Source: an uncultured Ruminococcus sp.
GTDB lineage: Bacteria; Bacillota; Clostridia; Oscillospirales; Acutalibacteraceae
Reading direction: 5' to 3'
DNA: 25,982 nucleotides
Assembly: GCA_902766585.1 (NCBI GenBank)
Contig: CACXDV010000148.1
Span: 1 to 25,982, forward strand
A program made the position numbers and the translations under genes. Each line of letters starts with the position of its first letter. The first letter of the stretch is position 1. The notes under the pieces are model-generated. The model did no database searches. It was not told where the DNA came from and saw only the letters and a list, made by a program, of their open reading frames with translations. Shown piece by piece: positions 8,249 through 21,993 of this stretch.

Positions 8249-8956
8249 GTGCAGGAAAATTTCGTAGAATTCAATAATGTATATAAACGCTATAAAATGG
8301 GTGAAGTAACTATAAATGCTGCTAACGGCGTAAGCTTCTCTATAAATGAAGGTGAATTTGCCGTTGTTGTTGGACTGAGCGGCGCCGGAAAAACTACCGT
8401 TCTGAATATTCTCGGAGGTATTGACAGCTGTGACGAGGGAAAAATCATCGTCGGCGGAAAGGATATCAGCCACCTTAACAGCAAGGAGCTTGCTTCCTAC
8501 AGAAGATATGATATCGGTTTTGTTTTTCAGTTCTATAACCTTATACCCAACCTTACCGCAAAAGAAAATGTAGAGCTTGCAACTCAGATTTGCAGGGATC
8601 ATATGGATGCCTCAGCTGCCCTCGATTCGGTGGGACTTCACGACAGAAAAAACAATTTCCCCGCTCAGCTTTCCGGCGGTGAACAGCAGCGTGTTTCAAT
8701 TGCCCGCGCTCTTGCCAAAAAGCCAAAGCTCCTTCTTTGTGATGAGCCGACCGGTGCTCTCGATTACAGTACCGGTAAGAATATACTTAAACTCCTACAG
8801 ACAAAATGCAAGGAGGACGGTATGACAGTTGTACTTATCACCCATAACTCTGCTATCACTCCTATGGCTGACCGCGTTATCAGCATGAGAAGCGGTAAGG
8901 TCATCAGTAATGTAGTAAATGAAGCTCCTATCCCTATTGAAAAAATAGAATGGTAA
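8249..8956 (+). CDS. ABC transporter ATP-binding protein (LolD/MacB-like)
   Basis: Walker [36 protein letters not shown]-loop ITHN; GTG start with GAGG RBS. Confidence 0.95.
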
Positions 8957-8980
8957 CTCTTCATACAGGACAGGTGTTAT

Positions 8981-11900
8981 ATGAAAGCTCTTACTAAAAA
9001 TATTTTCAGAGAAATTAAACATTCCAAATCAAGATTTCTTTCCATATTTGCCATTATCGCACTCAGTACCGGATTTTTCTCGGGAATAAAGTCCTCAAGT
9101 CCAAGTATGATAACGACCAGCTATGATTATCTGCAAAAAAATAATCTCATGGATATCCGTATCGTTTCAACTGCCGGCTTTGATGATGATGATATCAGGG
9201 CTATTAAAAATATGGATGAAACCGTTGATATTTTAGCCGGATACTGCTCGGACTTAATTGTAACAGATAATAATATCGACTCTGTTGTAAGGGTATATTC
9301 CTTACCGGAAAAAACTGATACTGCTGACAAATTGATAAATGAAACTATTCTGGTTGAAGGCAGATATCCCTCCGCTGACGGCGAATGTGTAATTGACAGC
9401 TATTATTTCCGTTCTAAGGGAATGAAGCTGGGGCATAAGATCAGGTTTAACGAACAAACCGATAATATAAAAACAAAGGAATTTATTAAACAGCTTGAGT
9501 ATAAGGTCGTCGGTGTAATTGATACTCCGCTTTATCTTACTTATCAAAGAGGCAATACTACTGTAGGAGACGGTAAAATTTCTTTCTATATCATGCTTCA
9601 GCCCGATCAGTTCATCACTGAACGTTATACAAATGCTTATGTCACTACAAAGGCTTCGGAATTATACTACGATTCTTTTTCGGATGAATACAAAAACGAG
9701 ATCAAAAAAGAAAAAGATGATTTTCAGAAGCTGTCTGACGAAAGAATAGATGTCTTTCGCAATACTACTCTTGCTGATGCGAAAAAAGAGCTTTCCGATG
9801 CGGAAGCGGAATTCAATGAAAAAAAGAAGGAAGCAGAGGATACAATTTCCGACGGTGAAAAGGAGCTTTATGACGGTCAACAGGAAATGGCTGATAAGCT
9901 TAGTGAAGGCATAAAAAAGCTTAATGACGGCGAAAAGGAACTGGCAGACGGAAAAGAACAGCTTGAAGAAGGCAAAAAGAAATACAATGACGGTATTGAA
10001 GAAGGAAAGGCTAAACTCACGGAAGGTCAGGCAAAATATGACGAAGGTCTGGCTCAGTACAACAAGGGCAAGCTTCAATTCGATACCGAAATATCAAAGG
10101 CTCAGTCTCAGCTTGATAAGGCTCAAGGAGAATTTGATACACAGTATAAGCTGTTCTATGAAACAACTAAGCCTCAGGCAGAAACCAAACTGAATCTGCT
10201 CAGAAGCGCTATTGAGCTGTGCAATAGTATCATTGAAGAAACAGAACGGAAAATAAATGACTTTGAGCTCATAACAGGCTCAGACACTGAACTTACCGCA
10301 CTATATGATAAGCTTGATGAATATAAAAGCAAGGTCAATGAATATGCAAAGCAATATGACAGCGGTATGGATCAGCTTGAAGAGGGCGAAAAAAAGCTTA
10401 ATGACGCAAAGGCTCAGCTTGAAGAAGCAAACAAAGCCTTTGAACAAAAAAAAGCAGAAGGTATGGCACAGCTCAATGATGCTAAAATTCAGCTCGATTC
10501 CGCAAAATCTCAGCTTGAAACAGGTAAGCTTGAATATGATACTGCCCTTGTTCAGGGTATGCTTGAACTTCAGCAGGCTGAAAATAAACTGACTGAGGGC
10601 GAAAAGGAACTCGAAAAGGGTAAAGAAGAGCTTCTTACCGAAAAAGCCTCCGCTATGCTTAAAATGAAGTCGGCAAGAGAAAAGCTCGCCGCTGGTAAAG
10701 CTGAGGCAAGAACTCAGCTTGCGGATGCAGAAGCAAAGCTTGCTGATGCAAGAGAAAATATTTCAAATCTTGATGATGCAAGATGGATAATCTTTGACCG
10801 TACAGATAATACAGGTTTTTCGGGATTGATAGAGGATGCTCTCCGCGTTGATAAGGTTGCAGCAGTATTGCCTGTTTTCTTCCTTCTTATTGCGGCTCTC
10901 GTATGTCTGACAACAATGACACGAATGGTCGAAGAACGGCGTACTGAGATAGGTACCCTTAAGGCTCTCGGCTACAGCAATTTCAAGATAATTTCCAAGT
11001 ATCTGATCTATTCTGCCCTTGCCTCCGTCTCGGGAAGTATTGCCGGAGCTGTGATAGGTATTTCATCACTCCCCTTTATTATCGTAGATACATATTCTAT
11101 GCTCTATACCCTTCCGCCGACTATCCTTTCTATTGACTACCAAAGCTTTATCTTCTCGGCGGCAACAGGAATACTTTGTACCTGCGTTGTTTCTGTTATC
11201 ACCTGTATGGGTGAGCTTAAACAGAATCCGGCTTCTCTTATGCGTCCGAAGGCTCCAAAGCCAGGTAAACGTATCCTTCTTGAATATATTACCCCTCTTT
11301 GGGCTGTTTTCAACTTTATTACAAAGGTGACCTTCAGAAATCTTTTCAGATATAAGTCAAGGCTTCTTATGACCGTTATCGGTATAGCAGGATGTACTGC
11401 CCTTATTATCGGAGGATTGGGACTTAAGGATTCGTTAAGCGTGATAGCACCTCTGCAATATGATGAATTAACTGTCTATGATGAGATCTATTCTCTTAAA
11501 AGCGGAGGTACAGTTCAGGAAAAAGCTTATTTGATGTCTAAGTTCCATGCAGATAAACGCTTCGCTGAAACTGCGCTGGTTGACCAGAATAACATTTCTA
11601 TACAGAATACTCAGAACGAAAAAAAATTCAACTATTATTATATCGTCGCTTCTGATATAAATGATTTTGAAAAGTTTTTCCACCTCCGTGACCGGGTAAC
11701 ACATGAGAAAAAAACTCTGACCGATAATGGTATTATTATTTCCGAACGCATTTCTCAGCTTATCGGTGCCGGTAAAGGCGAAAAAGCCATTATCAATATA
11801 GACGATACTCCTTATACTGTCGATATAACTGATATTGCAGAAAACTACGCCGGAAACTATATCTGCATGACTCCGGCATACTATGAAAAAATAACCGGCA

Positions 11901-12457
11901 AAACAAATAAATATCATATCGTCTATACTCAGCTGACTGAAGACGGCAAACAAAATGAAAAGGCTATTGCAGATGAATGGATGGAAGATGATGATATCCT
12001 TACAGTTTTTCTTCTTAAAGAACAGCTCGAAGGAATCATTTCAACACTTGATTCACTTAATATTATTGTATTTGTTGTCGTTCTCTGCGCTGCGATGCTG
12101 GCAATGGTCGTTCTGTATAACCTTACAAACATCAATATTTCTGAAAGAATACGCGAAATCGCTACAATAAAGGTTCTCGGCTTCTATGACCTCGAAACAG
12201 CAAGCTATATCTACAGGGAAAATATTTTCCTTACAGTTGCAGGAGCATTGGCAGGCTTACCGCTCGGCACCCTGTTTATCAGCTTTATTATTGATGCTCT
12301 TCAGATGGAAATTATTATGTTCCCGAAGTATGTCACCATTATGAGCTATCTCATCGGCTTTGCACTGACCGTTGTTTTCTCACTGTTTGTAAACTTCATC
12401 ATGTTCTTCCGAATGAAAAAGGTCAGCATGGTCGAATCACTAAAATCAATAGAATAA
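8981..12457 (+). CDS. FtsX/MacB-like ABC permease, internally duplicated, with long extracellular coiled-coil insertion
   Basis: N-terminal TM (RFLSIFAIIALSTGFFSG); EERRTEIGTLKALGYS and ERIREIATIKVLGFY FtsX motifs in two halves; C-terminal MVESLKSIE. Confidence 0.92.
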   Translation: MKALTKNIFREIKHSKSRFLSIFAIIALSTGFFSGIKSSSPSMITTSYDYLQKNNLMDIRIVSTAGFDDDDIRAIKNMDETVDILAGYCSDLIVTDNNIDSVVRVYSLPEKTDTADKLINETILVEGRYPSADGECVIDSYYFRSKGMKLGHKIRFNEQTDNIKTKEFIKQLEYKVVGVIDTPLYLTYQRGNTTVGDGKISFYIMLQPDQFITERYTNAYVTTKASELYYDSFSDEYKNEIKKEKDDFQKLSDERIDVFRNTTLADAKKELSDAEAEFNEKKKEAEDTISDGEKELYDGQQEMADKLSEGIKKLNDGEKELADGKEQLEEGKKKYNDGIEEGKAKLTEGQAKYDEGLAQYNKGKLQFDTEISKAQSQLDKAQGEFDTQYKLFYETTKPQAETKLNLLRSAIELCNSIIEETERKINDFELITGSDTELTALYDKLDEYKSKVNEYAKQYDSGMDQLEEGEKKLNDAKAQLEEANKAFEQKKAEGMAQLNDAKIQLDSAKSQLETGKLEYDTALVQGMLELQQAENKLTEGEKELEKGKEELLTEKASAMLKMKSAREKLAAGKAEARTQLADAEAKLADARENISNLDDARWIIFDRTDNTGFSGLIEDALRVDKVAAVLPVFFLLIAALVCLTTMTRMVEERRTEIGTLKALGYSNFKIISKYLIYSALASVSGSIAGAVIGISSLPFIIVDTYSMLYTLPPTILSIDYQSFIFSAATGILCTCVVSVITCMGELKQNPASLMRPKAPKPGKRILLEYITPLWAVFNFITKVTFRNLFRYKSRLLMTVIGIAGCTALIIGGLGLKDSLSVIAPLQYDELTVYDEIYSLKSGGTVQEKAYLMSKFHADKRFAETALVDQNNISIQNTQNEKKFNYYYIVASDINDFEKFFHLRDRVTHEKKTLTDNGIIISERISQLIGAGKGEKAIINIDDTPYTVDITDIAENYAGNYICMTPAYYEKITGKTNKYHIVYTQLTEDGKQNEKAIADEWMEDDDILTVFLLKEQLEGIISTLDSLNIIVFVVVLCAAMLAMVVLYNLTNINISERIREIATIKVLGFYDLETASYIYRENIFLTVAGALAGLPLGTLFISFIIDALQMEIIMFPKYVTIMSYLIGFALTVVFSLFVNFIMFFRMKKVSMVESLKSIE
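9770..10770 (+). repeat. Protein-level heptad repeats (xxxLxxG/A type) forming a coiled-coil stalk
   Basis: KKLNDGEKELADGKEQLEEGKKKYNDG, KAKLTEGQAKYDEG, QLEEGEKKLNDAKAQLEEA, NKLTEGEKELEKG, TQLADAEAKLADA; about 330 aa. Confidence 0.85.
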
Positions 12458-13555: not shown

Positions 13556-13584
13556 ATTATATTATTATTCTCCTTATTCGTCAA
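13556..13584 (-). promoter_or_regulatory. Near-consensus sigmaA promoter for ddh, -35 inside the last codons of the HAD gene
   Basis: TTGACG (13584-13579), 17 bp, TATAAT (13561-13556). Confidence 0.75.
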
Positions 13585-14224
13585 GAAGTTCATAATAGCT
13601 TTTTATAAATTTATCTGCGGCTGACTTTATTCTATCAAGATATTTGTGATTCATGCTATCATATACCGCAACCGTTGACATACCTGCTCCCGCTGCGCTT
13701 TCTATGCCCTCTATGATATCCTCATATACGGTACAGTTTTCAGGTCTGACTCCGAGTTTTTCCGCTGTATAAAGATATATAGCCGGATTGCTCTTATTAA
13801 AGCCTACCTCGGAAGTATAACAGATACAGTCAAAAATTCCTTCAAGTCCGTTATTCGCAAGACACGGCATCAGAAGATACGGATTATTGGAGGTAGCCAT
13901 TCCGAGAAGATATCCGCGGTTTTTGAGCTGTCTGAGGTATTCAGCTGCTCCCGGCTTAAATCGTACATTATTTGCATATTCATCATGCGCCATATCAAGC
14001 CATACCTGCATTATCTCCTCAACACTTTCATTCAGTCCGTATGTATTTTTTGTATATGCCGCTGCTGTTTCAAAAAACATACCGCGCATTTTATCTGTAT
14101 ATTCCTCTGTGACAGGTATATTTCTCTCTGTAAGAAAATCCTTGTCTACCTTCGACCATACATACATTGATTCTGCAAGCGTTCCGTCAAAATCAAAAAT
14201 TGCAGCCTTCCTATCACTTATCAT
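13574..14224 (-). CDS. HAD-superfamily IA phosphatase (beta-PGM / phosphoglycolate-phosphatase-like)
   Basis: Motif I FDFDGTL, motif II ATSN, motif III K(SNP), motif IV YEDIIEGIESA; GGAGG RBS. Confidence 0.9.
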   Translation of the reverse strand: MISDRKAAIFDFDGTLAESMYVWSKVDKDFLTERNIPVTEEYTDKMRGMFFETAAAYTKNTYGLNESVEEIMQVWLDMAHDEYANNVRFKPGAAEYLRQLKNRGYLLGMATSNNPYLLMPCLANNGLEGIFDCICYTSEVGFNKSNPAIYLYTAEKLGVRPENCTVYEDIIEGIESAAGAGMSTVAVYDSMNHKYLDRIKSAADKFIKSYYELLDE

Positions 14225-14242
14225 TTTCTGTCCTCCGGATCT

Positions 14243-15274
14243 TTATTTCAGATATCCGCCAACTACTTTCTTATAATCATTATAATCCATATCCCACAGA
14301 TCAGAAAGCGTATCGCTTCCCCTTCTGTCAGGGATATCATAATTTTTCTTAATGCGCTCCCCTACAAAAAGTGAAACCTTTCTTGCTCCTCTTGTATTCA
14401 GATGAACCCCGCCGTCACGGGTATCCTTTGTCCAATCAAGACCGACAGAGGCTTCTTCCTTTTGTAAATCAAGAAGAGGCACCTTGATTTGCTCCGCATA
14501 TTTATTCAAAGCCTGATAGTTTTTCTTGCTGCCTGTCAATGTATTGGGAACGGAAACAAGTATCAGACTGATACCGTTTTCTTCGCATATGCTTTTGATC
14601 CTGTTTACATAGTATTTTGTAATCGGATTTATCCTGCCATTAAGATAATCCTCCCCTGCTCCGTCCGGCAAATCAAGCTTTTCGCTTTCATAAGGCTCTG
14701 AAACAGATATTATCATCTGTCCCTTGGAGGGCGATTTCCATGAATATTCGATCGGTGAAAACCACTGCTTTGGTCCGGTATACTTCCATCTGTTGTGGTA
14801 ACGTATAATCGGAATTCCTGTTTCGACCTCATCTTGAAAATTCTTATCAAAAAGCTTTTTCGTAGTGTATGGAGCAAATACCACATCAGTCTCAAGCACT
14901 ACTACCTTCGGCTTCTGTGTCTTAAGAAATTCCGTAAGGTTATACTCTATCTCTGCCATGCTCGATGCGCCCTTAGCACAGACAAAGGATGTCATGCCAT
15001 ACTCATGCCAAAGCTCCAACGGCGAAAAGGCTGAATAGGCTTCGCTGTTTCCCATAAACACTACATCAAGAGTATTCTCCGGCTCGGCATAAAAAGCATG
15101 GGCATTCTGGTCGTACATTCCATTATCCTGATCGTTGTATTTAGGATAATACATACACTGTAACATATAAAGCAATATACCGAGGATCAGGAAAAATCCG
15201 AGTATTCTGACTCCCTTTAAAGCATATGTCAGAATACCCTTATTATTTTTTTCTTTATTTTCCTTCTTTTCCAT
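14243..15274 (-). CDS. Membrane-anchored SGNH-family protein (DltD/AlgJ/PatB-like extracytoplasmic acyltransferase)
   Basis: Basic N-terminus plus one TM; block I VFMGNSEAY (Ser nucleophile); block V RDGGVHLNTRGA. Confidence 0.82.
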   Translation of the reverse strand: MEKKENKEKNNKGILTYALKGVRILGFFLILGILLYMLQCMYYPKYNDQDNGMYDQNAHAFYAEPENTLDVVFMGNSEAYSAFSPLELWHEYGMTSFVCAKGASSMAEIEYNLTEFLKTQKPKVVVLETDVVFAPYTTKKLFDKNFQDEVETGIPIIRYHNRWKYTGPKQWFSPIEYSWKSPSKGQMIISVSEPYESEKLDLPDGAGEDYLNGRINPITKYYVNRIKSICEENGISLILVSVPNTLTGSKKNYQALNKYAEQIKVPLLDLQKEEASVGLDWTKDTRDGGVHLNTRGARKVSLFVGERIKKNYDIPDRRGSDTLSDLWDMDYNDYKKVVGGYLK

Positions 15275-15282
15275 TTTATCAC

Positions 15283-16872
15283 CTAAAACTGTGCGTAAAT
15301 ATTATCGACTTCACCGTAATCGGCACCATATGCGCCAAGAATGATAACCGCTATGATAAGCGCCATAAGTACCGGCCATTTTATATATATCCTCCCTGTT
15401 GAAACAGCGCCGAGGACATCCTTTTTGCCTTCCTTAAGTATACCAACGATCAGGAGAGTGAGTATTCCCAAGCCTATGATTATAAAATCCTGCCAGTCGG
15501 TACCAAGCGCAAAGAGCTGACCGTTTACTATATCATTGAGATCCTGAAATGCAAATATCTTACCGATTATTGCTCCGAAATCAGTGACGGAATCCACTCT
15601 GAACAATGCCATGCCAAAGCATACAAGAATTATTGTCCTGAATACGCGAAGACCTTCGGCAATGCCTGATTTACGATCAAGCTTAAGCTTATCCGAAAGC
15701 TTTATCCACAGAGGCTCTGTAACCATTCCTATCAGCATTATCAGGAAATAATATAATCCGTATACAACATACTTTATATCCGCGCCATGCCACAGACCTG
15801 TGCCAAGCCATACTACCAAAAGCGCGCTGGCTGTCGGAACAATTGAAGCCCAGAATTTTGTCATGCTCTTTGTACAAATCTTAGTCAATGCTCCGAATGG
15901 CTTTGAAAGCGATACAGGATAGAATACATAATCCTTGAACCATGTTCCCAGACTGATATGCCATCTTCTCCAGAATTCACTAACCGTCTTTGAGAAGAAT
16001 GGCTGGCGGAAGTTTTCGGACAGCTCCACGCCAAATAAACGCGCTGTTCCTGACATTATATCTATACAGCCGGAAAAATCGGTATAAAGCTGTACGGTAT
16101 ACAGTATAACAGCAACCGCTATCAGCGTTCCGCTGTATCTCGGATAATCATTGAAAACAGTAGATGCCATATATGATGCGCGGTCGGAAATTACTGTTTT
16201 CTTGAATAGTCCCCAGAGTATGAGTACGGCAGCTTTTGTAAAGCGTTCGCTGCTGTAACCCTTGCCCGCCGTCAGCTGAGGCATGAGATGGTCATAGCGC
16301 CCGATTGGGCCCTCAGTCATCTGCGGAAAAAAGCTCAGAAACAATGCCAGCTTCGCAAAATTCTTCTCTGCCTTGTATTTTCCTCTGTATGTGTCAACAA
16401 TATAACCTATCGACTGTAATGTGTAATATGATATGCCCAGCGGAAGAGCAAATGATAACGGTTTGACTTCCGCTGAAAAACCGAATGGTCTCATAAACGC
16501 TGCAAGCATATATGTAAAAAAGCCGGTATATTTCAGCACAAGCAGCATACCGAGATTTACAAGAACAGCGGATAGTACGACCATCTTTTTCTGCTTTGTA
16601 TAATATGCCTTCAGCTTCTTTTTTTCATCCTTCGGAAGCTCTTTTTTTTCAGTATTGAATCTCTCCTGAAGTGATGTCAATACCTTTCCTGTAAAAAATG
16701 TGCAAACTGCCGCAGCAAACAAAAATACCGCAAGCTGCAGATTTTCAAACAGATAAAATGCGGTGCCGGACAGAAGCAGTACAGTCCATCTTGCTTTCTT
16801 CGGAAATATGAGATATACAACATACGTTGCCAGAGCAAAACACAAGAAATAAAGATAACTGTAAAAATTCAA
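15283..16872 (-). CDS. MBOAT family O-acyltransferase (DltB/AlgI/PatA-like) with C-terminal NIYAQF motif
   Basis: LPLGISYYTLQSIGY, FFPQMTEGPI, ENFRQPFFSKTVSEFWRRWHISLGTWFKDYVFYP, catalytic GLWHGA; TTG start with GGAGGAG RBS overlapping the carrier gene stop. Confidence 0.93.
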   Translation of the reverse strand: MNFYSYLYFLCFALATYVVYLIFPKKARWTVLLLSGTAFYLFENLQLAVFLFAAAVCTFFTGKVLTSLQERFNTEKKELPKDEKKKLKAYYTKQKKMVVLSAVLVNLGMLLVLKYTGFFTYMLAAFMRPFGFSAEVKPLSFALPLGISYYTLQSIGYIVDTYRGKYKAEKNFAKLALFLSFFPQMTEGPIGRYDHLMPQLTAGKGYSSERFTKAAVLILWGLFKKTVISDRASYMASTVFNDYPRYSGTLIAVAVILYTVQLYTDFSGCIDIMSGTARLFGVELSENFRQPFFSKTVSEFWRRWHISLGTWFKDYVFYPVSLSKPFGALTKICTKSMTKFWASIVPTASALLVVWLGTGLWHGADIKYVVYGLYYFLIMLIGMVTEPLWIKLSDKLKLDRKSGIAEGLRVFRTIILVCFGMALFRVDSVTDFGAIIGKIFAFQDLNDIVNGQLFALGTDWQDFIIIGLGILTLLIVGILKEGKKDVLGAVSTGRIYIKWPVLMALIIAVIILGAYGADYGEVDNIYAQF

Positions 16873-16886
16873 GCAAAAACTCCTCC

Positions 16887-17111
16887 TTAGTCGCTGAGTC
16901 TTTCTATAAGCTCATAGATTGCTTTTGCAGAATTGAAGTTCTCGGGAACAAGATCAAGCGGAGTTATCTCAATATCATATTCATCCGAAATTGCAGTAAC
17001 AAGACGTATAATTGTCATAGAATCAAGTATTCCTGAATCTACAAGCTCAGTCTCATTTTCAAAATCAACACCGGGTTTTACCTCTTCAAGAATTTCTAAA
17101 AGCTTTTCCAT
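16887..17111 (-). CDS. Acyl/aminoacyl carrier protein (DltC-like)
   Basis: 74 aa, acidic; LVDSGILDSMTII phosphopantetheine Ser motif; ITPLDLVPENFNS. Confidence 0.92.
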   Translation of the reverse strand: MEKLLEILEEVKPGVDFENETELVDSGILDSMTIIRLVTAISDEYDIEITPLDLVPENFNSAKAIYELIERLSD

Positions 17112-17165
17112 TTTAATTTCTCCTTTGTATTTTTATTTTCAAAAGCCTATCGGCTTTATCAGCAT

Positions 17166-18674
17166 TTATTGAGGACAGTATTCCTTTTTTAAAAGCGCAC
17201 GGTCGATTTTTCCGTTGCTGTTATGCGGCATAGCAGCAAGCTTCTTATAAACCGCAGGCATCATATAATCGGGAACTCGCTTTTTGAGCGCTGATAAAAG
17301 CTCATCCTCTGAAAGCGAGCCTTCATAAACAATTATTATCTTATCATTTATTTTATCGAAAAGACAAGCACAGCTTTTCAGCCCCTCTTCCGCAAGAGCA
17401 GCGTTTTCTATTTCACCAAGCTCTATGCGGTAGCCCATGTGCTTTATCTGAAAATCCTTTCTTCCGCAGTAGAGCAATTCTCCGCGGTCATTGTACTTTA
17501 CAATGTCGCCTGTTTTATATACTATTTCCGGATATGCGCTTTGCAGCGGGTTAAGAACAAATGCCTCCGCTGTCTTTTCCGGATTATTATAATATCCAGC
17601 AGCAACAAACGGACCTCCGACATATAGCTCTCCCTCTTCTCCGGGCGCACATTCCTTTCCGTCCTCGGAAATGACCGCAACTGAGCAGTTATCACAGGCA
17701 GCTCCTATGGGCAGCGCTTCGCTGTCCTCAAAGCTTCGGTCAACTGTATAATAAGTACAAATATCGGTGGTCTCCGTGGGACCGAACAGATTTGCATACT
17801 TTACATCCGGATAATAGCTTATCCAGTAATTCAGCTTCTTTACAGGCATTACCTCTCCCGCAAAAAGAACTGTGCGGAGATATTCGGGCTTCATATATTT
17901 GAAAAGATCCATATTTGCCGCTATACAAAGTGCCGACGGAACCCAGTAAATAGTATTGACCTTTTTTTCATTCATATACTGAACAAGCTTTACAGGAAAT
18001 GCAAAATACTTCTTCGGTATTATTGCAAGCTGTGCCCCCGTCCTGAGTGAAGAATAAAAATCAGTTACCGACATACTGAAATAAAATGGAGTCTGGCTTC
18101 CGAATATAGTTTCACTTGTAATATCAAATGTATTTATAAACCAATCGGTATAGGAAAGTACATTTCCATGAGTTACTGCCGTTCCCTTCGGTACTCCTGT
18201 AGAACCAGAGGTAAACAGGCAATACAATAAATCAGTTGATGTCATTTTGCATTGAATTTCAGATAAAAGCTTATCATCTGCCTCAGCTGAAAGCGCTTCT
18301 GCAGAAGTAAGACTTAATCCTTCAAAACCGATATCATTCAGACTTTCTGAAAGTTCCTCCTCATATATTACCGCAAATGGCTTTACCGCTGCGAAAATTG
18401 ACTTAATTCTCTCGACCGGCATTGCTGTATCTATTACAACATAAAAATTTCCGCTGTATGCAGTTCCGAGCATTGCTGCCGCGCAAACCGGAGTCTTTTT
18501 CAGATAAAGCGCAACAGCGCCTTTTCTTTTTCCTGAAACGGCAAGAGACGTACCTATCCTTTTTGCACTGTCTCTCAGTTCGGTATAGCTTAGAGAGCTT
18601 ATCTCATCATTTACTGCTGTCTTATCGGGAAATGTATTTACTGTTTTTTCAAACGACTGTATTATTGTTTTCAT
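17166..18674 (-). CDS. Stand-alone NRPS-type adenylation enzyme (DltA-like, non-canonical pocket)
   Basis: YCLFTSGSTGVPKG, LFGPTETT, GELYVGG, YKTGD, GRKDFQIKHMGYRIELGEIE, NSNGKIDR; A4 motif reads FYFSMSV rather than FDxS. Confidence 0.92.
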   Translation of the reverse strand: MKTIIQSFEKTVNTFPDKTAVNDEISSLSYTELRDSAKRIGTSLAVSGKRKGAVALYLKKTPVCAAAMLGTAYSGNFYVVIDTAMPVERIKSIFAAVKPFAVIYEEELSESLNDIGFEGLSLTSAEALSAEADDKLLSEIQCKMTSTDLLYCLFTSGSTGVPKGTAVTHGNVLSYTDWFINTFDITSETIFGSQTPFYFSMSVTDFYSSLRTGAQLAIIPKKYFAFPVKLVQYMNEKKVNTIYWVPSALCIAANMDLFKYMKPEYLRTVLFAGEVMPVKKLNYWISYYPDVKYANLFGPTETTDICTYYTVDRSFEDSEALPIGAACDNCSVAVISEDGKECAPGEEGELYVGGPFVAAGYYNNPEKTAEAFVLNPLQSAYPEIVYKTGDIVKYNDRGELLYCGRKDFQIKHMGYRIELGEIENAALAEEGLKSCACLFDKINDKIIIVYEGSLSEDELLSALKKRVPDYMMPAVYKKLAAMPHNSNGKIDRALLKKEYCPQ

Positions 18675-18725
18675 ATAAGGTATTCCTCCTGATATAAAAA
18701 ATCTGTCACTGATAAGGCATTTTAT

Positions 18726-18734
18726 ATTATAACA
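18726..18734 (-). promoter_or_regulatory. Extended -10 promoter of the dlt-like operon
   Basis: TGtTATAAT on the minus strand, about 50 nt upstream of ATG 18674; -35 is poor. Confidence 0.55.
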
Positions 18735-18871
18735 TTTTTTCGGGAAATATTAAGGACTCTTACCGTATTTTTTCCCGTTTTCTGACATAAAAAATACACT
18801 TTTGTAGGATTATCGTAAAAAAATTCAAATATATCTTATATTTTATCTATTATTCATTTTTCTTTATCATC

Positions 18872-18903
18872 AAAAAAGCTGCTCCATATAAAAATGAAGC
18901 AGC
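18872..18903 (-). terminator. Rho-independent terminator after pflA
   Basis: Minus strand GCTGCTTCA-tttttata-TGGAGCAGC-TTTTTT. Confidence 0.85.
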
Positions 18904-18926
18904 CGGAATAGTTTATTATAATATTA

Positions 18927-19670
18927 TTATCTGACAAGTATTTCCTCAGCCTGTCTGACCTGTTCCTCGGTCGGAGTTGGTACATCTTCAAGCGTATAAG
19001 GAATATTCAGTTCCTTCCACTTAATAAGTCCGAGGGTATGATACGGAAGCACCTCTACCCTTTCAACAGTTTTCAGACTGTCAATAAATTCTCTCATCTT
19101 CAACAGGTCTTCTTTATCATCTGTTACTCCCGGAACAAGAACATGACGTATCCACATTTTCTTACCGTTATCGGAAAGCCAACGAGCCATTTTCAGAATA
19201 TTGGTATTGTCAACTCCGGTAAGCTCCCTATGTCCTCTCGGATCCATTTGCTTCAAATCAAGCAGCACAAGATCGGTAACGCTCATCAGTTCCTCAAAGC
19301 GCTCCATCCATTCCTTATCCTCAGAAAACGGCTGTCCTGCTGTATCAAGAGCTGTATGGATACCCTCTCTCTTTGCAAGGGCGAAAAGACTATATACAAA
19401 TTCCTTTTGAAGAAGGGGTTCTCCTCCGCTGACGGTTATCCCGCCGTTATTCTTCCAGTAGGTCTTATATCTTTTTGCTCTGTCAAACAATTCCCTTGCA
19501 GTCCATTCCTCTCCCTTATCGCTCCATGTATCGGGATTGTGACAAAAACGGCATCTCATTCTGCATCCGCTTAAAAATATTACATATCTTACGCCGGGAC
19601 CGTCTACAAGTCCGAAGGTCTCCAAAGCATGAACTCTTCCGATAATGTTTTCATCTGTTTCTGACAGCAT
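18927..19670 (-). CDS. pflA: Pyruvate formate-lyase activating enzyme (radical SAM)
   Basis: GRVHALETFGLVDGPGVRYVIFLSGCRMRCRFCHNPDTW (CxxxCxxC), GITVSGGEPLLQ, LPYHTLG. Start ATG 19670 with AGGAGG RBS (track start 19763 overlaps pflB). Confidence 0.96.
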   Translation of the reverse strand: MLSETDENIIGRVHALETFGLVDGPGVRYVIFLSGCRMRCRFCHNPDTWSDKGEEWTARELFDRAKRYKTYWKNNGGITVSGGEPLLQKEFVYSLFALAKREGIHTALDTAGQPFSEDKEWMERFEELMSVTDLVLLDLKQMDPRGHRELTGVDNTNILKMARWLSDNGKKMWIRHVLVPGVTDDKEDLLKMREFIDSLKTVERVEVLPYHTLGLIKWKELNIPYTLEDVPTPTEEQVRQAEEILVR

Positions 19671-19693
19671 GATGATCCTCCTATATACAGATA

Positions 19694-19724
19694 TTCCCTC
19701 CGATACATAAAGCAGCGAAGGGAA
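19694..19724 (-). other. Intergenic stem-loop between pflB and pflA without U tract
   Basis: Minus strand TTCCCTTCG...CGGAGGGAA 9-bp stem including one G-U pair. Confidence 0.45.
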
Positions 19725-19734
19725 CAGCATTTTA

Positions 19735-21993
19735 TTAAAGTGTCTTATGGCAGGTACGGGCAATTACATCAAGCTGCTGCTCTCTTGTAAGGTCAATAAA
19801 CTTAACAGCATATCCTGAAACACGGATAGTAAAGTTTGCATACTCTTCTTTCTCCGGATGCTCCATTGCATCGATCAGCTTTTCTGTACCAAATACATTT
19901 ACATTGAGGTGATGTGCGCCCTGGTCAAAATATCCGTCCATTACCTGAACAAGATTTGTAATGCGCTCCTCCATTGAATGTCCCAAAGCATCAGGACTGA
20001 TTGTCTGTGTATTTGAAATACCATCAAGCGCCCAGTGATAAGGAAGCTTTGCAACGGAATTAAGAGAAGCAAGAAGTCCGTTCTTTTCTGCACCGTAGCT
20101 GGGGTTAGCGCCCGGTGAAAGCGGTGCTCCGGCAGGTCTGCCGTCGGGCATATCCGATGTAGCCTTACCGTATACAACATTTGATGTGATAGTAAGAATA
20201 GATGTGGTAGGCTCGGAATTTCTGTAGGTATGGTGCTTCTTTATCTTATCGAGGAAGGTGCCGAGCAGCCATACTGCAATATCATCAGCGCGGTCATCGT
20301 CATTTCCGTAACGCGGGAAATCACCCTCTGCCTCAAAGTGAAGAACAAATCCGTCTGTATCGCGGATAGTTCTGACATGAGCATACTTTATTGCGCTGAG
20401 TGAGTCTACAACGTGTGAAAAACCTGCAATACCTGTTGCAAAGGTACGTCTTACATCAGTATCTATAAGTGCCATTTCGGCAGCCTCATAGTAGTATTTA
20501 TCATGCATATAATGGATGAGGTTGAGCGCGTTTACATATACCCCCGCAAGCCAATCCATCATCTTTTCAAATTTATCTATTACCTCATAATAATCAAGGT
20601 ATTCTGTGGTGATAGGTCTGAGCATGGGGCCGACCTGATCTCTGCTCTTTGCATCAACACCGCCGTTTATTGCATAAAGAAGACATTTTGCAAGATTTGC
20701 TCTTGCTCCGAAGAACTGCATCTCCTTGCCTGTCTGTGTTGCGGATACGCAGCAGCATATGGAGTAATCATCACCCCATACCGGCTTCATTACATCATCA
20801 TTTTCATACTGTACGGAGCTGGTCTCTATTGATACCCTTGAAGCATATCTCTTGAAATTATCGGGAAGTGCGGATGAGTAAAGAACTGTAAGATTAGGCT
20901 CGGGTGAAGGTCCCATATTCTCAAGCGTATGCAGGAAACGGAAATCGTTCTTTGTTACCATTGAACGTCCGTCAACGCCTATTCCGCCTACCTCAAGCGT
21001 TGCCCATACCGGATCGCCTGAGAAAAGCTGATTATATGAAGGGATACGCGCAAATTTTACAATACGGAACTTCATTACCATATGGTCAATAAGCTCCTGA
21101 GCTTCCTTCTCTGTAAGAATACCCCTGTCAAGATCTCTCTGTATATAAATATCAAGGAAGGTTGATACCCTGCCTACAGACATTGCTGCACCGTTCTGAG
21201 TCTTGATTGCAGCAAGGTATCCGAAATAAAGCCACTGAACTGCTTCTCTTGCATTCTTTGCGGGACCTGAAATGTCATAGCCGTAGATCTTTGCCATTTC
21301 CTTCATGCCCTTAAGAGCGCGTATCTGCTTTGCGATCTCTTCACGAAGTCTGATGACCTCGTCTGTCATTGTACCATCGCCACAGTTTGCAAGATCCTTC
21401 TGCTTCTTTTCAATAAGAAAATCTATTCCGTAAAGTGCAATTCTTCTGTAGTCACCGACAATTCTTCCTCTGCCGTAGGTGTCGGGAAGTCCTGTAATTA
21501 TTTTTGCATGGCGGACAGCCTTCATTTCGGGAGTATAAGCATCAAATACAGCCTGATTATGTGTGGTGAAATATTCGCTGAATATCCTGTGAAGCTCCTG
21601 ATCCGGCTCATATCCGTTGGTAGTGCAAGCCTGCTCTGCCATTTTGATACCGCCGTAGGGCATGAAAGCTCTCTTAAGAGGCAGATCCGTCTGCAGTCCT
21701 ACTACCTTCTCATACTCGGGATGATCTTCATCTATATATCCTGCACCGTATGCTGTAAGACCTGAAACAACCTTTGTTTCCATATCAAGAATACCGCCTT
21801 TGGCACGTTCAGCCTTCTGGAAACGCTGTACCCTATCCCACAGGTAATTTGTTGCCTCGGTCGGACCTTCAAGAAAGGATTCATTTCCGTCATAAGGACG
21901 ATAGTTCTTCTGAATAAAATCTCTGGTATTTACTTCTAATTTCCAGAGTCTTCCTTCAAAGCCTTCCCAAGCCTCTGCATTTTTAATATCCAT
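19735..21993 (-). CDS. pflB: Formate C-acetyltransferase (pyruvate formate-lyase)
   Basis: [44 protein letters not shown], active-site ICCCVS, glycyl radical motif TIRVSGYAV. Confidence 0.98.

Follow-up and report, generated by a model that had tools for sequence, protein, structure and literature searches.

The DNA analysed here, hereafter the window, is contig CACXDV010000148.1 (assembly GCA_902766585.1), positions 1-25,982, from an uncultured Ruminococcus sp. of the Acutalibacteraceae, and all coordinates without a locus or contig prefix refer to it. On its minus strand, between pflA and the gene of a diaminopimelate dehydrogenase (DAPDH), lie genes for a stand-alone adenylating enzyme (A), a small carrier protein, an MBOAT acyltransferase and an SGNH-fold protein, followed by a gene for a HAD-type phosphatase. 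Based on the analysis reported below, we propose, with a probability of about 0.6, that the first four genes form a cassette that is a carrier-fed variant of the MBOAT-SGNH polymer acylation systems, Dlt-like in its working but not a member of the Dlt system. The features of the locus are the following.

18904..18877, minus strand: terminator-like hairpin with a T-run 3′ of the pflA stop codon, an 11-pair stem followed by TTTTTGATGA
18753..18726, minus strand: promoter-like site of the extended −10 type (TTAATA, 16 nt, TG-n-TATAAT), a consensus match only
18674..17166, minus strand: stand-alone adenylating enzyme, 502 aa, with an AMP-binding / amino-acid adenylation domain (Pfam, NCBIfam)
17111..16887, minus strand: carrier protein, 74 aa, PP-binding match of 32.6 bits
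16872..15283, minus strand: MBOAT, 529 aa (Pfam, NCBIfam)
15303..15286, minus strand: codons of the C-terminal MBOAT hexapeptide N-I-Y-A-Q-F, an FxYxxF-type fused acyl-shuttle motif
15274..14243, minus strand: SGNH-fold protein, 343 aa, with a weak GDSL match (24 bits, below cut-off)
14224..13574, minus strand: HAD-IA phosphatase, 216 aa (Pfam, NCBIfam)

The open reading frame (ORF) coordinates give intergenic gaps of 54, 14, 8 and 18 nt between the five genes, the MBOAT and SGNH genes each have a Shine-Dalgarno sequence that overlaps the stop codon of the gene before, and domain searches identify pflB and pflA upstream of the A gene and DAPDH downstream of the HAD gene. This bears out much of an earlier note on this DNA, which had described a dlt-like operon of five tightly spaced co-directional genes, with two ribosome-binding sites overlapping upstream stops, lying behind the pflA terminator and without an evident dltX: the hairpin at 18904..18877 separates the cassette from the pflBA unit, and no DltX-like small ORF was found around the first two cassette genes, those of the A enzyme and the carrier. 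The single extended −10 promoter of that description is present as a site at 18753..18726; since promoter-like sites are frequent in the region (29 found versus 18 expected in the surrounding AT-rich stretch), it is a plausible rather than a proven promoter.

The 502-aa enzyme holds all core A motifs and scores 307.8 bits against the DltA model TIGR01734, as against a cut-off of 559.85, within the same range as the non-ribosomal peptide synthetase (NRPS) A domains of Clostridia (~220-330 bits against this model); DltA of at least 520 bits occurs in 5 genomes of a sample of 200 Clostridia genomes. In a maximum-likelihood tree, midpoint-rooted and with a DltA set of four Clostridia sequences, one of them above the cut-off, the cassette A enzymes and DltA fall into two sister clades, each with a support of 100/99 and both apart from the NRPS domains, and the window's own subtype is monophyletic (100/100). 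Just outside the cassette clade branch the products of three loci (L105, L107 and L108, on G159:C158, G105:C3 and G132:C42) at which three stand-alone adenylating enzymes of ~504-518 aa each stand in tandem; their codes, D-N-L-T-M-C-L-D-V-K and D-N-F-T-V-A-L-V-D-K, keep Asp235 and add an Asp at 330 or 331.

The substrate pocket was read from an alignment of 58 adenylating sequences, in which window residues 200, 201, 204, 247, 270, 272, 296, 304, 305 and 489 give the specificity code S-M-T-S-L-A-L-D-I-K, whereas the two top-scoring DltA proteins (L099 and L100, next to DltB in Clostridia) have D-L-M-S-L-C-T-V-C-K. Ser200 (codon 18077-18075) stands in the column of the alpha-amino-binding Asp of DltA and NRPS A domains, Ala272 in the column where DltA has Cys, a residue that, from the DltA structures, disfavours L-Ala, and Asp304 (codon 17765-17763) at Stachelhaus position 330, while Lys489 ends the code. 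The form S-M-(T/S/L)-S-(L/M)-A-L-D-I-K is found in 120 of the 120 nearest cluster representatives, down to 54% identity, and therefore reflects a selected specificity and not decay; we know of no Stachelhaus code that matches it convincingly. The altered A pocket noticed earlier is thus a conserved property, with Ser200 and Ala272 replacing the Asp and Cys of DltA, and the proposed test of whether the enzyme clusters within DltA came out negative, the enzyme falling in a sister clade with 308 versus 560 bits and a code of its own.

The carrier has an L-D-S-M phosphopantetheine attachment site, and its best family match is DltC, below the cut-off in both models (NF003464, 37.6 versus 68; TIGR01688, 23.1 versus 52.35).

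The MBOAT scores 151.8 bits against the DltB model TIGR04091 (cut-off 375). Its His305 (W-R-R-W-H) and His362 (W-H-G) are invariant in 18 homologues and align to the DltB structures 6BUG and 8JEM. Two extra C-terminal hydrophobic segments, at ~458-483 and 492-520, precede the terminal N-I-Y-A-Q-F, of which the family consensus is F-I-Y-A-Q-F; Ile525, Tyr526 and Phe529 are invariant in the same homologues, the first position being Phe in most relatives and Asn in the window, and Tyr526 is the predicted acyl acceptor. The reading that the shuttle motif is fused to the MBOAT therefore stands. In the MBOAT tree, the carrier-linked proteins form a clade (support 99) within carrier-less Clostridia MBOATs ending in FxYxxF, and the DltB proteins adjoining DltA, of 384-395 aa and without the motif, lie on a very long separate branch. 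The window's own genome (G000) also encodes two further MBOATs of ~470 aa ending in F-L-Y-F-(K/R)-F (C111:299-1462 and C115:214-1410), presumably of the acyl-CoA type, and an NRPS-like open frame of at least 1103 aa (G000:C61:312-1742) with the code D-A-I-Q-I-G-A-I-C-K.

It has been reported that PatA acetylates itself on the Tyr of its C-terminal FxYxxF motif, from which PatB accepts the acetyl group, that the Dlt system carries the same motif on the separate microprotein DltX, and that other MBOAT-SGNH pathways have no carrier protein and use acyl-CoA (PMC12148441, 2025). For 39 of the 44 MBOATs of the cassette clade, an A enzyme and/or a carrier gene is present in the locus, and in two window-type cassettes a phosphopantetheinyl transferase gene directly follows the SGNH gene (L022:8521-9069 and L033:8491-9270), which fits a real carrier-dependent system. 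Together with the fused shuttle, these two observations make the main departure from the published picture, and the gene context argues against an acyl-CoA donor acting without a carrier. In the literature on MBOATs, carriers, adenylation, Dlt paralogues and Dlt-like systems, a coverage from which subscription journals were mostly absent, no carrier-fed fused-shuttle MBOAT was found described.

The SGNH protein has one N-terminal membrane helix. Its structure model, built from 20 homologues (pLDDT 90.5, pTM 0.88), retrieved TesA and GDSL acylhydrolases at the top of the Foldseek matches (E ~3e-6), with PatB at rank 22 and DltD at rank 29 and below (TM 0.33-0.42), and the Pfam DltD family PF04914 has no match in the protein or in its own genome. 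Gly75, Gly93, His160, Asp287, Gly289, His291 and Asn293 are invariant in the alignment, and a Ser77-His291-Asp287 triad is predicted; the position of Ser77, in the motif G-N-S-E, is occupied by Ser in the window's subgroup and by Cys in another one, as expected of a catalytic nucleophile. Clusters of a protein atlas name this partner only 'hypothetical' or 'SGNH/GDSL hydrolase family protein'. The eight cassettes with Cys at the predicted nucleophile (G-D/N-C-E; L032, L037, L039, L042, L048, L050, L068 and L074) share an insertion of ~20 residues in the SGNH protein, and their ligase codes are D-A-K-S-A-G-L-G-M-K or D-A-K-T-C-M-L-G-T-K in four, the rest being other or unread.

The MBOAT tree and the Foldseek ranking together place the export proteins in an AlgI/PatA-type lineage, and their description as divergent DltB and DltD cannot be kept. 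Since the ligase module is related to DltA/DltC and the export module is of the AlgI/PatA type, the cassette looks like a hybrid.

The block of A enzyme, carrier, MBOAT (~529 aa) and SGNH protein recurs in Coprococcus, Oscillospiraceae, Acutalibacteraceae and many uncultured Clostridia, in agreement with the expectation that similar clusters are common in gut Clostridia. The HAD gene follows the cassette only in the closest, syntenic relative (L118, MBOAT 74% identical) and is absent from homologous cassettes elsewhere. A congeneric genome (G231, locus L144) has pflA directly followed by the HAD gene, in the order pflB-pflA-HAD-DAPDH, and G013 and G018 bear the cassette and the HAD-DAPDH pair on separate contigs. 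It follows from the cassette-less order and these two genomes that the cassette entered as one block, together with its own promoter, between pflA and the resident HAD gene. As a fifth member or a substrate supplier, the HAD protein was rejected on the synteny in these three genomes: of the supposed five-gene operon, the four genes from A to SGNH stand, and the membership of the HAD gene by descent does not, as it predates the insertion. Lying 18 nt past the SGNH gene, it may be co-transcribed with the cassette.

The FtsX/ABC gene pair at 8249-12457 was likewise rejected as a part of the system, as it adjoins DAPDH in relatives without a cassette at that site. This plus-strand pair, an ABC ATPase of 235 aa and an unusually long FtsX-type permease of 1158 aa, converges on DAPDH, and its position next to DAPDH is conserved in congeners independently of the cassette.

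Contigs of four bovine-gut RNA libraries span the cassette at a depth of 3-10, with pflB at several hundred, and bridge the A-carrier-MBOAT and MBOAT-SGNH junctions. In three of the four runs the depth is ~0 over 18880-19203, and the longest contig over the start of the A gene ends at 18699, downstream of the promoter-like site. The bridged junctions and this end fit a low-level transcription of the cassette as one unit. DAPDH is ~10x deeper than the HAD gene and the cassette in these contigs. The best promoter-like match of the region lies at 13556-13584 on the minus strand (TTGACG, 17 nt, TATAAT; 11/12), overlapping the end of the HAD gene ahead of DAPDH. The longest pflA ORF (18927-19763, minus strand, 278 aa) has a TTG start and overlaps the end of pflB by 29 nt; its true start is probably further downstream, since the PflA model aligns from residue 43 only and the pflA of the syntenic relative encodes 257 aa.

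A search with the MBOAT returned more than 7,500 homologues. A cassette-clade ligase (E ≤1e-90) is present in 63 of 398 sampled Clostridia species, 6-7 of which fall in the score range of the window's subtype, and within the genus the 529-aa MBOAT is patchy, occurring in 3 of 18 other species at ~60% identity and in 2 of 18 at 38%. The nearest named records are Acutalibacteraceae metagenome-assembled genomes from the rumen, cultured Coprococcus strains hold a close homologue of the cassette, and the window sequence itself occurs in bovine gut metagenomes. Apart from the phosphopantetheinyl transferase, genes neighbouring the cassettes include an LCP gene, polysaccharide pyruvyl transferases, two-component systems and a fused ABC-FtsX gene. 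The last of these (L020:1454-4240) has a stop codon that abuts the ligase start and is translationally coupled to the cassette, and a cardiolipin-synthase-like gene with two PLD domains (L033:2593-4083) ends 3 nt before the ligase start. In the databases, the NCBI labels are generic ('amino acid adenylation domain-containing protein', 'AMP-binding protein', 'MBOAT family O-acyltransferase') and some JGI records are labelled DltA, DltB or AlgI, so the mislabelling as dltA, dltB and dltC that the earlier note foresaw holds for some JGI records but not for the NCBI names.

The acyl group is probably other than D-alanine. In sister cassettes, a gene of a fold-type-III decarboxylase dependent on pyridoxal 5′-phosphate (PLP), of the Orn/DAP/Arg decarboxylase family, adjoins that of the carrier, in most cases on the side of the ligase (L025:4438-5646, L026:3330-4562, L029:4552-5751, L027:4746-5927, L031:4203-5510 and L038:6736-7929). 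All of these but L027 (I-A-R-A-C-S-Q-A-S-K) have the ligase code D-V-K-S-x-S-L-C-N-K, which is nearly always accompanied by such a gene. Aspartate or glutamate is decarboxylated on the carrier in macrolactam pathways, and by analogy the arrangement suggests an on-carrier decarboxylation of an acidic amino acid in the sister cassettes, which would yield a beta- or gamma-amino acyl group. These decarboxylase-linked cassettes, together with the tandem-ligase outgroup with its Asp235 and Asp330/331, weakly suggest that Asp304 holds a cationic group. Our best guess, which is tentative, is a small amine-bearing acid with its amine held by Asp304. Candidates are beta-alanine and similar non-alpha amino acids, as well as small alpha-amino acids in a different pose.

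The acceptor is best guessed, from gene content and context, to be a teichoic-acid-like wall polymer. TagF-type enzymes (PF04464) occur in five of five cassette-bearing genomes, and LtaS-type enzymes, searched for by the sulfatase domain PF00884, in none of the five, four of which are at least 99% complete. In the complete genome G163, a cassette of the window type closes a co-directional teichoic-acid gene cluster with genes for three TagF-like enzymes, a TagD-like cytidylyltransferase, a TagGH-like ABC-2 exporter, a UDP-glucose pyrophosphorylase, an epimerase and a GT4 transferase.

On this basis, we propose that acylation could proceed in four steps. First, as the motifs indicate, the 502-aa enzyme would adenylate a small carboxylic acid and thioesterify the phosphopantetheine arm of the carrier. 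Second, following the PatA/DltX mechanism and the conserved residues, the MBOAT would take the acyl group from the carrier at the cytoplasmic face, and the group would cross the membrane to the Tyr of the MBOAT's own x-I-Y-x-x-F motif; with the shuttle on the MBOAT itself, no DltX would be needed. Third, on the same grounds, the membrane-anchored SGNH protein would accept the acyl group on Ser77, assisted by His291 and Asp287. Finally, as the genome context suggests, the SGNH protein would esterify a wall glycopolymer, for which a teichoic-acid-like polymer made by TagF is the likeliest candidate.

Several points weigh against this proposal, or against parts of it. Asp304 adjoins what we take to be the alpha-amino group site of the solved A domains, so that an alpha-amino acid, D-Ala included, might also fit the pocket. 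PanD was not found in the complete cassette-bearing genome G163, and beta-alanine made in the cell is therefore not favoured there; as PanD is present in three of the four complete cassette-bearing genomes, its co-occurrence does not discriminate on the supply of beta-alanine. The trees are midpoint-rooted and DltB is on a long branch, and the predicted complex of the carrier with the MBOAT and SGNH proteins (score 0.07 versus a mark of 0.34) carries no weight either way. The link to teichoic acid comes from one lineage and from presence or absence in five genomes, no wall-polymer genes were found near the cassette in the window, whose other genes are housekeeping genes, and the RNA-library contigs are shallow and without strand information, so that DNA carry-over is possible. 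Besides, the hosts are without canonical Dlt, and the cassette could be its functional replacement.

The same machinery might instead transfer an amine-free acyl group, namely a small hydroxy acid or other acid such as lactyl, glycolyl or glyceryl, with Ser200 and Asp304 forming hydrogen bonds to its hydroxyls. We consider this unlikely, although, in NRPS codes, A domains for non-amino acids typically lack the alpha-amino-binding Asp, and some of the neighbours would suit it, such as a 2-hydroxyacid dehydrogenase gene after the cassette in Coprococcus, the HAD phosphatase after the cassette in the window, and the polysaccharide pyruvyl transferases that precede it in L120. However, no such neighbour is shared throughout the subfamily, the HAD gene is older than the insertion, and a cationic group would be the better partner for a conserved buried Asp. 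Moreover, several cassettes adjoin two-component systems or ABC/FtsX transporters, and in Dlt such surroundings accompany charge modification.

Still less probable is a strongly diverged dlt operon that places D-alanine on teichoic acid, with Asp304 replacing the lost amine-binding Asp. For such an operon it can be said that the A enzyme and the carrier have DltA and DltC as their closest characterised relatives, that the A clade is sister to DltA, that the pocket is DltA-sized apart from three positions, and that the niche is free, no DltA, DltB or DltD above cut-off having been found in the genome of the window (76% complete). However, Ser replaces the Asp kept in DltA and in almost all aligned alpha-amino-acid A domains, Ala replaces Cys, and this differing code is conserved over the 120 representatives; the MBOAT and the SGNH protein are not DltB and DltD, and no LtaS-type enzyme is found in the five cassette-bearing genomes. 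D-Ala as the acyl group is given little credence.

Least probable of all is a product other than a wall-polymer ester, that is, acylation of a membrane lipid, peptidoglycan or secreted polysaccharide, or a small secreted metabolite: the cardiolipin-synthase-like gene directly upstream in L033, a glycerol-3-phosphate dehydrogenase gene downstream in L022, the polysaccharide locus around the L120 cassette and the action of PatB-type SGNH partners on peptidoglycan (PMC12148441) speak for it, but the co-directional TagF/TagD/TagGH cluster in G163, the TagF-type genes in all five genomes, and searches of Pfam and NCBIfam that found no condensation or thioesterase domain to hint at a metabolite pathway speak against it.

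Returning to the carrier-fed MBOAT-SGNH system, its most specific form, held more tentatively than the guess at the acyl group alone, is that gut and rumen Clostridia without Dlt and LtaS may put a hitherto undescribed ester of a small amine-bearing non-alpha-amino acyl group, such as beta-alanyl, on a TagF-made wall polymer, by a DltA/DltC-type loading module joined to an AlgI/PatA-type fused-shuttle MBOAT. If true, this hybrid machine would overturn the published generalisation that fused-shuttle MBOATs use acyl-CoA without a carrier, and the MBOAT-SGNH acyl-shuttle mechanism would accept carrier-protein donors without DltX. Teichoic-acid D-alanylation governs surface charge, resistance to cationic peptides and host interaction in Bacillota, and if the acyl groups that the cassettes install are different ones, much of the gut and rumen microbiota would carry an undescribed surface chemistry.

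Compared with known systems, the cassette shares with Dlt the stand-alone A enzyme, the small carrier, the MBOAT, the extracytoplasmic SGNH-fold transferase and the tyrosine shuttle motif. However, all four proteins are below the Dlt family cut-offs or without a match, the pocket code S-M-T-S-L-A-L-D-I-K replaces D-L-M-S-L-C-T-V-C-K, the order is A, carrier, MBOAT, SGNH with no DltX and the shuttle fused to a 529-aa MBOAT of another lineage, the SGNH fold is closer to TesA/GDSL and PatB than to DltD, and the hosts have no LtaS-type match (five genomes). The core of what the earlier note had read here, a dlt-like route dependent on ATP and a carrier that is not Dlt itself, holds in the computational tests, while its ancestry for the MBOAT and SGNH proteins and its place for the HAD gene do not.

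The re-use of a DltA-like ligase and a DltC-like carrier for another envelope aminoacylation has a precedent in AlmE/AlmF/AlmG of Vibrio cholerae, which modifies lipid A with glycine; AlmG, however, is a cytoplasmic-face LpxL-type acyltransferase, unlike the MBOAT-SGNH pair of the cassette. VinN/VinO/VinL, which load a beta-amino acid in macrolactam biosynthesis, combine an A enzyme, a PLP decarboxylase and a carrier, as in the sister cassettes, whereas the window cassette has no decarboxylase and another pocket code, and the comparison bears on its substrate only by analogy. On the export side, PatA/PatB, AlgI/AlgJ/AlgX and WssH/WssI share with the cassette the two extra C-terminal MBOAT helices with an FxYxxF-type end and the separate SGNH partner; systems of the PatA/PatB type have no A enzyme or carrier and use acetyl-CoA as the donor (PMC12148441), whereas in the cassette clade 39 of the 44 loci bring an A enzyme and/or a carrier of their own.

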